NCBI GenBank assembly: GCA_002269645.1
Contig: NIVC01000889.1
Span: forward strand, 1-64,000
Length of the DNA: 64,000 bases
Source of the DNA: Macrostomum lignano
Taxonomy: Eukaryota
Reading direction: 5' to 3'
The notes below the pieces were generated by a model. The model saw only the letters and a program-made list of their open reading frames with translations, did no database searches and had not been told where the DNA came from. The first letter of the stretch is position 1, and each line of letters starts with the position of its first letter. Shown piece by piece: positions 24,701 through 45,700 of the stretch. Made by a program: the position numbers and the translations under genes.

Positions 24701-27700
24701 CATTCTGGGTAAGCTGTGGTACCCACATTCTGCATGGGTAAGCTGTGGTACCCACATTCTCGGTAAGCTGTGGTATCCACATTCTGGGTAAGCTGTGGTA
24801 CCCACATTCTGCATGGGTAAGCTGTGGTACCCACATTCTGGGTAAGCTGTGGTATCCACATTCTGGGTAAGCTGTGGTACCCACATTCTGCATGGGTAAG
24901 CTGTGGTATCCACATTCTGGGTAAGCTGTGGTATCCACATTCTGGGTAAGCTGTGGTACCCACATTCTGCATGGGTAAGCTGTGGTATCCACATTCTGGG
25001 TAAGCTGTGGTATCCACATTCTGGGTAAGCTGTGGTACCCACATTCTGCATGGGTAAGCTGTGGTATCCACATTCTTGGTAAGCTGTGGTACCCACATTC
25101 TCGGTAAGCTGTGGTACCCACATTCTCGGTAAGCTGTGGTACCCACATTCTGCATGGGTAAGCTGTGGTACCCACATTCTGGGTAAGCTGTGGTACCCAC
25201 ATTCTGGGTAAGCTGTGGTACCCACATTCTGCATGGGTAAGCTGTGGTATCCACATTCTTGGTAAGCTGTGGTACCCACATTCTCGGTAAGCTGTGGTAC
25301 CCACATTCTCGGTAAGCTGTGGTACCCACATTCTGCATGGGTAAGCTGTGGTATCCACATTCTGGGTAAGCTGTGGTATCCACATTCTGGGTAAGCTGTG
25401 GTACCCACATTCTCGGTAAGCTGTGGTACCCACATTCTCGGTAAGCTGTGGTACCCACATTCTTGGTAAGCTGTGGTACCCACATCCTTGGTAAGCTGTG
25501 GTACTCATTCTCAATTTTCAAATTATCAACAACGACAAGGATTTTTTAACGTATCTGCATCCCATAGAATACTCGTATCTTATAACTGTCTATAATAAGT
25601 AGTATTCATACTGATAACTAATCAGCCACCTTGATATTCCAACATTTTAAGCTGACGACACGACGTCCGTGGGCGGCTCCGCCTCTGAGAAGCAGCTGGA
25701 AAGTCCGGGTGGCCCGGCCGGCCCCATGCAGCAGCCGGACGGCACTCGGAAGTTGATCCCAACTGTGAGCGGCTTTCAGTTGCTGGGTGGTTTTGCATTT
25801 GTCGTACTAGTACATGGTTTCAATATGCTTAGCATACACAGCTACCTGTACAAGCTGTTTAAATTAGAGCAGGATTTAGATAAATTACTGGTTTAAACAA
25901 ACTACGAGTATTAATTGATTCAAACAAACTACAGATTAAAAAATCTATATCGATTTAAACAAATTAACAAATAATTGGTTTAAATGAACCATTGATTTAA
26001 GCAAACTATTGATTTAAACAAATTATTGATTCCGACAAATTTTTTATTTAAATAAAGTAACTTATACAAGTAATTTATACAAATTAATGATTTAAAATTA
26101 AAGAAACTACTTATTGAAAAGCTATCGATTTAAACCTACAAACAAATTAACAAATTTTTGTTTGAAATAAACTAATTATTTAAACAAACTAATGATTTCA
26201 ACAAATTACTAATTGAAATAAACTAATAATTTAAACAAACTATTGATTTAAACAAATAATTAATTTCAAAAGCTATTAAATAAAATAAATTAATCATTTA
26301 AAAAGCTATTGCTTCGAACAAATGACTGATTCAAACAAACTACTGATTGAAAGAAACATTATTAGTATTTCCCCAGATCATTATTAATATTAAACGCTTG
26401 TACATAATATCATTAATAAAATATATGCTCTCGATTAAAATAAACAATTTGTTTAAACAAACTATCGGTAGTTAAATAACAGTACTAATTTTAAACAAAA
26501 TTTAGACCTTGACCTAATTCTGATCCTAACCCTAACCTACTACTAGAATCATATTTTGCTGAGTTCAATCTCAACCGTTGAATTTTTTGCACCTATCTAA
26601 ACTCATATTTCCTCTTGAATGGCTTCCCTTCTTGTTCTACCAAAAAGCAACACGATCAGGGGTCGGGGGAGGACAGCGCGAACACGGGAAGCTCGATCTC
26701 ATTTCCTTAACAACAGCGAGAGAGGAAGAGACCAGAGCTAGGTGGGGGAAAGTAGTAATAGGAAATTACACACAACCCCGAATTTTACATTATAGAACAA
26801 ATAGGAAGGTATCCGTCAAAAATTTCATTACACACAACCCCGACTTTTACATTACAAAATGAATAGGAAGGTATCCGTCAGAATTTTCGTTACACACATC
26901 CCCTGTTTCTATATTACAAAATGAATAGGACGGTTCCCACCATAAACGCAGTACGCAAAGACCCAATTTTCGCACTGCAAAACAAATCGGACTGTATCCG
27001 ATTGTATTTTATCACATTTGGCCAAATGCGAATCTACTGGGTTGTATGGCATAAATAAATTTTCACACACGCAGCCTTTATTGGTCTTATTTCGTGATCA
27101 GTATAATCAGGAACCAAATCAAGCCTTTCATGATTATTGTCTGTATATTTTACTGTTATCAAAACGAGTTGTTTGTATTGGATAGTCAGTACGATCGATT
27201 ACAGCAAGGATACATAACTACGCAGACTCCGGTATAATCGCAAATAATAATTTATTGAACGAATTTTCTCTCGCCCCGCAAACAATCAGGAAGTAACAGC
27301 CGGATTGCATCTGAATAAAGACTGGTAATGCAAAACATTTGAGCGATTCTACACAAAAAAACAGTCGGAGTGCCTTGGATTTAATATAATGTATCTAAAC
27401 TACGCTCGTATTTTGGGATAATAAAAACTGAGGTTAAACCATCACGACAAACCATTGCAACGATATATAACTGCGGTAAAACCAATTGAATCGAGAAGCA
27501 CGCGCAGGATTAAGAGCATCATGTAAAAACTAACGATTCTGCATTACAAGAACAGAGGCAACACATGTGCTGCAAAGCGTCGCAGGCAAAAATACGCGCG
27601 CCGAAATTCATTCCTTCGACGAGACCCACAACCAAGAATACGCGTTAAAAAGAATCGAAGGCTACCACCACGAGTCAGTTTGAAATACAAATAAAACAAC

Positions 27701-42700: not shown

Positions 42701-45700
42701 GCGGCCTTAAGCGGTACCCACTGCACCGGGTTGTAGTCTGCAGAAGGCCCTTCCGTCGCGTGGCGGGATGGCTGTTTCGTTGCGCGAAACAGTATCTTGC
42801 AGACTGACTTGGCCTCCAGCTCAATCTCGATTATGCGCTCCACCGATCTGCAGCAGAAAATAGTTTGGCAACTTTTTTAAATGGCAAAAGTATATATTAC
42901 AGTAAATAGACATTTAACAAAAACGCAATCTACCTCAAAAGGTTGAACAGAGTTTTGCAAAAATCTTCTGCGAAAATAGGCAGGGCGACTTCGTCTCGAG
43001 GTTCGGCGTTGGGTGAGGTTGAATGATCCGACACGCTGCCCCTCTCATGAAGACCCTTCAGCAGTTCGATCTGGTCCTTCGTCTGAAGGACCACCGGGTA
43101 GCGTCTTTTCTCTCCTGGTCGCGACCAAGACACCGATCGAAAAAAACATTCACCGTTGGTTGTCTCGTCACCAATATGGATTCTTGCTCCGTTCGTCAGA
43201 TCTTCTTGTGTGAGAACCGCATCAGAGAGAAACGTTGTCATTGCTGTTCCGAGGTCGGCAGGTCGTCGTCTCGAGGCCAGTCCAGTAGTTCTTGCTCCCT
43301 GGGTTTTCGACTAAAAAATCTGCTTTCTTTTATAGAAAATTTTGTTGGGGTGGGACTGCATTCCCACCTCATTAGTAGTCTGATTGAAAAAGCCCTGGGA
43401 ATCATGCGATCACCACCTGCATATAGGCGGCGTTGAAAGTGTCAATATCACCGGAAGCTAAATTAATTGACTGGACGGATACCATGGTAACACCCTGGCA
43501 ACAACAGCAGAATCTAAGAGCGACCTTCAGATTCGCTCGGTTGCATGCGTCCAAATCTACATAAGCTGCCTAACTTCAGAAACGTTGTTTTATTTAAACG
43601 AATGCTTTTGTTTATCACTGCTCATGAGAACCTGTAATTAATCCTATTTTATGGAAGCTAATTTATGGAATCATTCTTTATGCAATCAATTCGTTATTCG
43701 TGAGAACCTTTAATTAAGTCAGGAATCAAGTGAACATAAACAATGTGGTTGATTGCCCTGTATAATTAGCTGGGTGTTTCTCCTTAATGAGAGAGCCATG
43801 TATATATAGTCAGCAACAGTCAAAAGTTCCACCTGAACAACACTCGTAGTTTATAGAGAGAAAACTTCTCAATTAAAATGCACAGTAAACAGGATGACGA
43901 AAAATATCTTTGCTTTGTGGGTGGAACTTTTGACTGTTGTTGGGTATATATATGTTAATAAAAACTCCAAGGTCTACCTGTCTGTCCTTCATTCGATCGA
44001 GCTCATTGACAACTTACTTTTACTAGGGGGCTGTTGAATCGTCGCGATGGACAAGGAATCAAGACGTAAGGAACTTATCGAGCGGTACATCAAAGAAGGT
44101 AAGCGGTAAAAATTCATATTTTGCATAAACTTGATTGAGTAGTGGTTAACAACTCTTCAATCGAACCTTGCAGCATTCAAAAACGGGGTATTCAACCATC
44201 CGCCCCCTGGGTACCGACTACCTCCCGGTTACCGCTCGCCAACATTCCGCGTTATGAGTGAAAATGATCTGAACGTAGCGATCGAGGTGTTGGGGGACGC
44301 CAGATACAACATAATCGTGAAGAGGAACGGTGCCGTCGTTAGCGAGACGGAGTTTTGGGACCTTTCATAGTAACAATTTTACATGTATAATATGCATTCA
44401 TTGACTCTATTTCTTATGTAATACATTTTCATGTACGTAGTCGGCTACGTGTAGTAATTAGTGGCGGAATTCCTTATATGCCAACAAAATCATATACCTT
44501 GCAGATAGTTAAAGAGAAGATGTTTTTTTTAGTTCCGATCTTGTTTCCTACAATCTTGATGAAAAATAAATATGATCATCCTAGGCAACTTAAACAAGGC
44601 CAAACTGGCGATTCCTTAAATTCCTCCTGTCTCACACAAATTGCTGAAAAACCGACAGGCGAGCGAGCGCGTCTACTGGAGAGAGTGGTGAGTGAAAGCC
44701 TCTGTCTAGCATCTTAATTCCCATTATGCCGCTAAATCTGTGCTTTATCTTTGAACCAACTTCTCGGATTCGGCTGCTCAGAGCAGCTCAAATTCGGAGA
44801 CAATTCGTGGGCCTTACGCGCCAGCTATAGGCGGACCGGGCAGAGTGGCTTGTTGCTCGGCATCCTGAAGGCACGTGAAGACAACTAGTCTTCTAACACA
44901 GGAATCTTTTTTTCGATGATTTAGTGAAAAAAACTTGTGTGGTGCAAATATACAACAAACTAGTTCGTCGTTTATTTCAAAGTAAACGTTTACTCGGAGT
45001 TAAGACTAAAATTAATCGATTGGTCAATCCAATAAGATGCTAAGGCAAAAACTCGCTAATTGCAAGCTGCTTGATTGCATAATGGAAACATGCGCGAAAT
45101 AGTGCGCATCAACTTTCGCTTGTAGATGCCGCGTTTGCAGATCGAGACAGTATACGGCAGTGCTATCCAACAGGAGCACAAAAATTTGCGTGAGAAAACC
45201 AAAGCTGGCGCTTTGCGCGTTGGACACTTCCGAGATTCGTTGAAAAACTTCGCTAATTGAGGCGATTGCAGCCGATCTGTTGTAGACTTGGATTTGCGAG
45301 GAACGATGCTCTGCTTGTAGCGTTTCGAGTGTGTTTTTTGAAGCTTGGGCTAATTGTCTCACTGATTCTTGCAGTTTTTTCGAAAGCTTCGGTATTCTTT
45401 TGCAGTGCTTCAGACTGTCGATTTAATATAATGGCTATTTTCTGCATTTGACTTGACATAGTGTTTACAAGTAGATTTCTTGCCACTGGGTGGAATTCGG
45501 AGCACTGACTTGGCTTCGCTATCTTAAACTAAACCGGTTGCAGTTGACAGATACTGTCCTATTTGTTTTGTAATGTAAAAATCTGGGTTGTGTGTAATGA
45601 AATTTTTGACGGATACCTTCCTATTTGTTCTATAATGTAAAATTCGGGGTTGTGTGTAATTTCCTATTACTACTGGGGAAAACGTTAACTACATAAAACT

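Follow-up and report, generated by a model that had tools for sequence, protein, structure and literature searches.

A stretch of 64,000 nucleotides from the flatworm Macrostomum lignano (positions 1 to 64,000 of contig NIVC01000889.1, forward strand; assembly GCA_002269645.1), hereafter called the window, contains a Maverick/Polinton element that spans positions 26751-45674 (18,924 bp). The element is intact, was inserted recently and has a complete virion module. We interpret it, with a probability of roughly 0.7, as a recent insertion of a multi-copy, transcribed Maverick/Polinton family (eupolintovirus-type provirus) whose replication block is adapted to host RNA processing.

The borders of the element are sharp. 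A perfect 6-bp target-site duplication (TSD), GGGGAA, is present at 26745..26750 and again at 45675..45680, and the element ends in AGTAGT...ACTACT, in agreement with the AGT-type terminal motif of Mavericks (PMC8097293). Thus, both the 6-bp TSD and the AGT-repeat ends characteristic of Mavericks/Polintons are found. Self-comparison of the terminal inverted repeats (TIR; left arm 26751..26880, with repeat units of about 62 bp, and right arm 45545..45674) shows identity over exactly 90 nt, followed by 7 mismatches up to 130 nt (123/130). The 16 coding pieces of the element, all on the minus strand, sum to 14,040 nt and contain no internal stop. Since 4.4% of the substitutions in these pieces would create a stop, the element can have diverged neutrally by about 0.5% at most after it was inserted, a bound that is partly circular because the pieces were drawn on this same copy, and the term "young" is reasonable. 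The original prediction, made from the letters of this DNA, of an intact, young Maverick with a perfect 6-bp TSD and 90 bp of identical TIR is hence corroborated, as are its list of minus-strand genes and their order. Its statement that all core open reading frames (ORFs) are open, however, does not hold for the polymerase, whose long ORF stops at 36432, after motif B and before motif C, which sits in a different frame; the SSB-like gene is likewise composed of two ORFs joined by an intron.

The main exon of the protein-primed family B polymerase (pPolB) lies at 36471..40262 (minus strand, start approximate) and covers a terminal-protein-like region, a vOTU-like Cys/His region, an exonuclease with an EndoVII/HNH-like insert, and motifs A and B (PF03175, E 1.7e-21; PF02945, E 1.6e-9). 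The terminal-protein and vOTU labels follow PMC11161782. The last exon (35845..36387), which carries motif C (DTDS) and the thumb region, is identical to the M. lignano protein PAA86599.1 (P0008) at 178/180 positions and to the environmental relative P0009 at 97/179. The PF03175 match and motifs A, B and C, characteristic of protein-primed polymerases, are therefore all present, motif C being encoded by an exon of its own; no match to pPolB was obtained in phage records. The two exons are separated by 83 nt with GT-AG borders (36388..36470), and several lines of evidence strongly suggest that this gap is a spliceosomal intron and not decay. Indeed, when ranked with approximate weights, the donor at 36470 is the first of 1,153 GT on the strand and the acceptor at 36388 the 37th of 1,165 AG, and a phase-compatible pair of host-type sites occurs near just 117 of 18,324 positions. 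Three of the four donors discussed in this work fit the top host motif GT[G/A]AG. In P0009 (53% identity), the match to the main exon extends to residue 102 and that to the last exon starts at 104, with no extra residues in between. The relatives P0010, P0017 and P0019 likewise run through without a break; P0023 stops short of the last exon. The two ends of the intron share one 6-nt context, which is compatible with insertion at a proto-splice site or with plain splice consensus.

Use of the pPolB acceptor is shown in another copy of the element. P0008 employs the acceptor at 36388 with a donor situated 3.2 kb upstream (39621..39626), its residue 91 ending at 39627 and the sequence resuming at 36387. 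Its N-terminal part is only 88/94 identical to the element, so P0008 comes from another copy. The matching gene-id format of its locus tag connects P0008 to the GenBank annotation of the M. lignano assembly, which was built on RNA-seq and from which transcripts overlapping repeats were dropped (PMC5730564). This long splice skips the OTU-like protease, the exonuclease and motifs A and B, so that its product cannot polymerise. It seems that the short splice yields the active enzyme and that the choice of donor is regulatory, though the long splice may equally be cryptic or imposed by the host. Because a complete polymerase appears to depend on the host spliceosome, the element would need host nuclear transcription. 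This tempers the suggestion that the element is closer to an autonomous virus, although the TBP-like, deoxynucleoside kinase (dNK) and dUTPase genes on which that suggestion was built are real.

A second intron of the GT-AG type, 86 nt long (42848..42933, acceptor third of 1,165), interrupts the SSB-like gene between exon 1 (42934..43241; 101/102 identical to P0011 and 60/102 to P0013) and exon 2 (42091..42847), which codes for a putative OB fold suggested by ESM Atlas leads and a low-complexity tail, and contains an internal donor at 42240. All six M. lignano models of this protein connect the two pieces with one junction residue, a second family that is 56% identical being included. The SSB label itself is an unproven lead: Atlas scores of 0.77-0.81 to DUF5871, DUF2738 and Pox_I3 clusters are reached by a third of shuffled proteins, and searches of Pfam, NCBIfam and the PDB were empty or returned chance matches. 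The UniRef names of P0011-P0016 (OTU, HORMA, FYR, PTB domain) are mutually inconsistent and found no Pfam support in the two that were scanned. The idea that the two introns belong to one introner family was rejected, as the two show no similarity to one another or to any other part of the window.

No second copy of the element is present within the window, and none of 13 window ORFs looked up as exact sequences in a protein collection was found. Besides the match of pPolB to P0008, six UniRef proteins of M. lignano match the SSB-like pieces, four of them at 97-99% identity, one at 88-99% and one at 55-59%. Such a distribution points to several near-identical copies in the genome plus a second, diverged family, although the duplicated chromosomes that PMC5730564 describes may account for some of the near-identical copies. 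Relatives were absent from two scans of bacterial and archaeal genomes (0/170 and 0/60 stretches).

Another gene of the replication block encodes a TBP-like core domain (41261..41833). Its sequence matches are weak (Pfam E 3e-4; PDB E 0.11). An AlphaFold2 model computed from seven sequences (pLDDT 90.9) superimposes on solved TBPs across the whole saddle (Foldseek E 1.2e-9; Z 15.6, root-mean-square deviation 2.6 Å over 167 residues), and the profile compared with solved TBPs gave E 2.6e-12. On this model, the predicted product is a true TBP fold with a two-repeat saddle. Its relatives are rare: six were found among 1.84 billion representatives, four of them at 38-40% identity and on short contigs, and five of the six pass the Pfam cut-off for TBP. 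A word-indexed search with the TBP core retained none of 64 candidates, phage records gave no match, and a profile comparison of TBP with the SSB-like protein was negative. The gene also has a GC content of 0.37, below the 0.52-0.58 of its neighbours.

The first ATG of this gene (41773) lies 20 codons inside the fold, with the first strand upstream of it. The first residue of the fold is also the first residue after a candidate splice acceptor (41834..41848) that ranks first of the 1,165 AG, fits the M. lignano motif [T/C]TNCAG and is in phase 0 with the TBP frame. The pre-ATG strand is predicted with a pLDDT of 92-93 and pairs with the first strand when aligned with solved TBPs; its 20 residues, with 7/18, 7/15 and 7/20 positions conserved, match the level of the domain overall (35-38%). 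Similarity to P0001 and P0003 starts at the acceptor point, after a Gln codon as which an in-frame CAG acceptor reads, and in two distant relatives, P0005 and P0006, a Met of their own stands 1-2 residues ahead of it. The spliced leader of M. lignano ends in ATG and 30% of genes are trans-spliced (PMC8629364), and flatworm leader AUGs can start translation (PMC12582326, PMC9851317). From these features of the sequence, we give somewhat less than even odds to trans-splicing as the event that would provide the TBP-like mRNA with a start codon, the leader AUG; translation from the internal ATG at 41773 seems rather unlikely. A scheme in which every gene has its own upstream acceptor, in the manner of an adenovirus leader, was rejected, because among 16 starts only the TBP acceptor is high-ranked within 80 nt. 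A host-type acceptor motif at 41253, 2 nt before the ATG of dNK, is a second candidate trans-splice site of low rank.

Downstream of the core, the TBP-like frame stays open as a C-terminal extension (40859..41260), 129 codons of which are overprinted on dNK. An opening of this length was reached in 62 of 50,000 within-gene synonymous shuffles, in 4 of 20,000 re-draws and from none of 2,551 starts in other genes; the test was post hoc, and other genes have shifted open stretches of up to 115 codons. The extension is missing from the four closest relatives, which stop at the end of the core.

Both enzymes of nucleotide metabolism are clear members of their families, as confirmed by sequence comparison. 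The dNK (40588..41250) matches PF01712 (E 4e-19) and the Drosophila enzyme (E 5e-6), and presents the P-loop, catalytic Glu and lid typical of the family. The trimeric dUTPase (34990..35658) matches PF00692 (E 3e-32) and contains motifs I, III, IV and V. In the predicted replication and transcription block, the TBP fold, dNK, pPolB and dUTPase are therefore well founded, the SSB label being without a significant family match.

The virion block follows the replication and transcription genes, and the terms "early" and "late" of the original prediction can be read as a functional grouping only. It starts with a protein containing a parvovirus-type phospholipase A2 (PLA2) domain (34308..34730; PF08398, E 1.2e-9; catalytic HD motif) and an A32/FtsK-type packaging ATPase (33587..34306; Pox_A32, E 0.002, under the cut-off; Walker A and B). 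Next come a putative minor capsid protein (32558..33553), a protein with an adenovirus pX-like segment (32048..32476; Adeno_PX, E 6.9e-5, under the cut-off), a 236-aa ORF with the putative label PZ (31331..32041) and a putative Cys-rich ORF of 75 aa (31052..31279), which overlaps the start of the integrase and has no family match. The retroviral-type DDE integrase (29911..31089), located within this block, bears the D-D-E motifs and a C-terminal chromodomain (rve, E 2.6e-6, and Chromo, both under the Pfam cut-off; IS481-like, E 3e-12). It is followed by a basic protein with 27% K+R, a putative core protein (29437..29868). The major capsid protein (MCP; 28098..29423) gave no sequence match in Pfam or the PDB. 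Its assignment to the double-jelly-roll type comes from the ESM Atlas, a sequence score and not a fold model, with a match of 0.98 to double-jelly-roll-like clusters of arthropods and nematodes, PF21738 being present on 14-24% of members and all ten best family matches falling in the same family or clan. The block ends with an Ulp1/adenain-type maturation protease (27544..28107; ASFV S273R, E 1.9e-6; His, Asp and Gln/Cys motifs). The DDE integrase, packaging ATPase, cysteine protease and double-jelly-roll MCP that define Mavericks/Polintons are thus all found. Of the predicted virion block, PLA2, the ATPase, the pX-like segment, the integrase, MCP and the protease stand; the minor capsid, PZ-like and basic-core labels, drawn from position, size or composition, are unproven. 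The candidate single-jelly-roll minor capsid protein had no family match in Pfam, PHROGs or NCBIfam, nothing significant was found for the PZ candidate in these same collections, and the basic protein has no family match.

The two blocks also differ in their organization. Spacers measure 186-325 nt in the first block, the TBP/dNK overlap excepted, and -10 to 81 nt in the second, except for one gap of 241 nt containing the small ORF; the supported introns are confined to the first block. A candidate promoter, TATAAA (43329..43334, minus strand), precedes the first gene by 93 nt. Where the two blocks meet, ahead of the virion genes, a tandem duplication of about 107 bp (34725..34944, 92.9% identity) contains the PLA2 start context and one ATTAAA in each copy.

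The following course of events could account for these data. The DDE integrase inserted the element, creating the observed 6-bp TSD. Host splicing would then join the SSB-like exons and use the pPolB acceptor, as it does in sister copies, and removal of the short pPolB intron would very probably give a complete protein-primed polymerase. Use of the far donor would instead give a short product devoid of the protease, exonuclease and motifs A and B, so that the choice of donor could switch replication on or off. The TBP-like mRNA might be cut from a longer transcript by spliced-leader trans-splicing, its start codon being the terminal AUG of the leader, which we hold nearly as probable as not. 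The TBP-like protein could replace or redirect host TBP at the promoters of the element, most likely those of the virion block, while dNK and dUTPase would provide dNTPs and prevent uracil from entering the DNA. Copies would replicate from the TIRs by protein priming and could be packaged in double-jelly-roll capsids, by analogy with what is established for the family. A complete two-stage viral programme run through host RNA processing, in which a polymerase splice switch is combined with a leader-AUG-started TBP-like factor for the virion genes, is a more speculative proposal of rather low probability. If true, a leader-supplied start would tie activation to cells rich in trans-splicing, such as neoblasts.

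Several observations weigh against this interpretation. No record of the short pPolB splice was found, and the sole RNA-based model has the inactivating long splice. The basis of the six UniRef SSB-like models, RNA or ab initio, is not visible, and structure prediction of the SSB-like protein from three sequences reached a pLDDT of 31. Motif II of the dUTPase deviates at one normally invariant position, which makes its activity uncertain. As to the TBP-like protein, no M. lignano protein model of it was found. TATA binding by TBP relies on four intercalating Phe and paired Asn, and this set is incomplete here. Repeat 2 keeps both aromatic (Phe) positions and the acidic stirrup, whose Glu is invariant in seven of seven sequences; repeat 1 is without the canonical aromatic pair, and both Asn positions differ. 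Due to these changes, the DNA specificity is probably altered, and TATA binding may be altered or lost. Finally, the in-frame cis donor at 42240 could serve the acceptor at 41834.

Some of these points would suit a different view of the same element, namely that it is an intracellular self-synthesising transposon only, with the capsid module and accessory genes as inherited cargo that is rarely or never used. The non-functional RNA-based pPolB model and the deviating dUTPase motif II are in line with it, as is the fact that, by the time of PMC8097293, no virions of Mavericks had been observed and that the present element is known from sequence. However, the virion ORFs are all open and tightly packed with intact catalytic motifs, and conservation of the SSB-like gene and of the 20 TBP residues ahead of the ATG, across relatives diverged by 35-56%, implies selection on the accessory genes. 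This view thus appears possible but rather improbable.

For the TBP-like gene alone, the domain could instead be cis-spliced from the donor at 42240 as an isoform of an SSB-TBP fusion that couples replication and transcription. Indeed, between 45600 and 41860 no strong phase-0 donor other than 42240 (sixth of 1,153) is preceded by an open frame; P0015 is spliced there, and P0016 stops there. Yet P0015 joins this donor to a different acceptor, within the same gene, a search restricted to proteins of 210-2,000 aa gave three matches and no fusion among them, and in the distant relatives TBP stands alone and has a Met of its own, so we regard the fusion as unlikely. Similarly unlikely is a TBP-like protein that starts at the first ATG and lacks the first strand, being either a decoy for host TFIIB/TBP regulators or non-functional. 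The ATG at 41773, the changed aromatic positions of repeat 1 next to an invariant stirrup Glu, and the starts of P0002 and P0004 inside the domain would fit it. These two starts are, however, choices of the gene caller, and the missing strand is the confidently modelled, conserved one that aligns to solved TBPs.

It is very improbable that the element is virophage-like and depends on a helper, with a TBP-like protein that acts on the transcription apparatus of a large DNA virus infecting the same host. Among viral structures, the best matches are TBP-like proteins of giant viruses (E 2e-8), and the SSB leads point to Nucleocytoviricota families, but spliceosomal introns require nuclear host transcription, cellular TBPs fit the model better (TMq about 0.70) than viral ones (0.60-0.67, best five), and P0008 already suggests expression and splicing in uninfected worms. 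Least credible is a dead copy in which the pPolB break is a disabling insertion or an assembly error: the 83 nt are not a multiple of three and have stops in all frames, the short splice is without record and the inner TIR has 7 mismatches, but the GT-AG borders are exact and fall at the point at which the continuous relatives show no additional residues, an RNA-based model from another copy uses the acceptor, and 14 kb show no other lesion.

Comparison with known systems confirms that the provirus with host-adapted replication genes proposed here is a bona fide Maverick. It shares with vertebrate Mavericks/Polintons the (AGT)2//(ACT)2 ends, the 6-bp TSD, pPolB, integrase, ATPase, protease and MCP and a modular layout, and falls inside their ranges of size (12.7-24.6 kb) and TIR length (46-1,447 bp); modules on the same strand also occur in X. 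tropicalis elements (PMC8097293). The flatworm element adds the TBP-like, dNK and dUTPase genes. Moreover, intact vertebrate Mavericks are reported as intronless (PMC8097293), whereas two supported introns are found here, one of them within the core. With Alpha adintoviruses (PMC8502044), a family now named Eupolintoviridae (PMC12166617), it has in common a PF03175-type PolB with OTU-like Cys/His, rve integrase, FtsK, adenain, hexon and PLA2. The combination of PF03175 PolB with OTU and a PLA2-bearing virion module that marks this family is thus present, OTU being recognised by Cys/His motifs only. PLA2 and the pX-like segment are separate ORFs in the flatworm element, in contrast to the PLA2X fusion of Alpha adintoviruses (PMC8502044).

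The accessory cargo is partly precedented. Labels of dUTPase and SSDBP appear in some maps of animal adintoviruses, and TBP only in the legend of the MELD-virus figure, in a section on non-animal datasets (PMC8502044). The part of the PMC8502044 supplement covered here holds no kinase label, while its figure images, Table S1 and File S2 could hold more precedents. Thus, the notion of an expanded accessory set holds for dNK, for which no precedent was found in animal Mavericks, and less so for dUTPase, SSDBP and TBP. The polymerase insert of HNH/EndoVII type is shared with the pPolB2-class Polintons of terrestrial nematodes and oomycetes; PMC10748475 calls it unique to these groups, while the host is a flatworm here and the likeness is one of the insert. 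Introns inside full-length integrated elements are also known from introner-bearing eupolintoviral elements of dinoflagellates (PMC12166617), whose hosts are protists and whose introners are mobile, unlike the two flatworm introns, which resemble no other sequence of the window. Further literature consulted in this comparison comprised bioRxiv 697771, PMC6431247 and bioRxiv 2023.10.16.562556. In the literature covered, which included few subscription journals and no Repbase reports, so that absence is a weak argument, we found no Macrostomum Polinton, no dNK in an animal Maverick, no intron-split animal pPolB and no gene of a virus or transposon that takes its start from the AUG of a spliced leader. 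With the nearest relatives outside Macrostomum at 53% in pPolB and 35-40% in TBP, the lineage does look undescribed, as had been proposed.

The more surprising part is the dependence on host splicing, which has RNA-based support, together with the hypothesis of a start codon supplied by the leader. In the spliced early region of adenovirus and in the P-element, splicing builds replication proteins and the choice of splice gates a key enzyme; these systems are unrelated or distantly related to the flatworm element and serve as an analogy only. Screens that equate intact elements with unbroken ORFs may score live elements with intron-split polymerases as broken. In addition, the rare, diverged TBP would be a further case of a mid-size DNA virus with a basal transcription factor. 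The family is transcribed and multi-copy, and its host is a laboratory flatworm in which transgenesis is available and trans-splicing sites have been mapped, so existing RNA data allow checks on the control of splicing, on initiation from the leader and on late expression driven by TBP.

Some other features of the element and its surroundings complete the picture. An Rfam scan of the element gave no match. At 43801-43952, a 33-bp inverted repeat (91%) with a spacer of 86 nt carries a TATATA run in each arm and TATAAA in the loop, and is possibly a MITE-like insert or a promoter element. Near the right TIR (45024-45528), three overlapping short minus-strand ORFs (91-132 aa from stop to stop) without family match are possibly a spliced or decayed gene. 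Eight ORFs of the non-coding region 43241-45528 and one upstream of pPolB gave nothing above the Pfam cut-off. The flanks are animal DNA rich in minisatellites. On the left, a non-LTR retrotransposon is present in fragments with reverse transcriptase and RNase H (4580-6661), followed by an unbroken host ORF of 638 codons with temptin and copper monooxygenase domains (17978-19894). On the right, a host ORF contains a long polyglutamine tract (48343-49322), and a ligand-gated ion-channel gene similar to acetylcholine receptors (52626-59397) is interrupted by a long microsatellite of the ATCT type.

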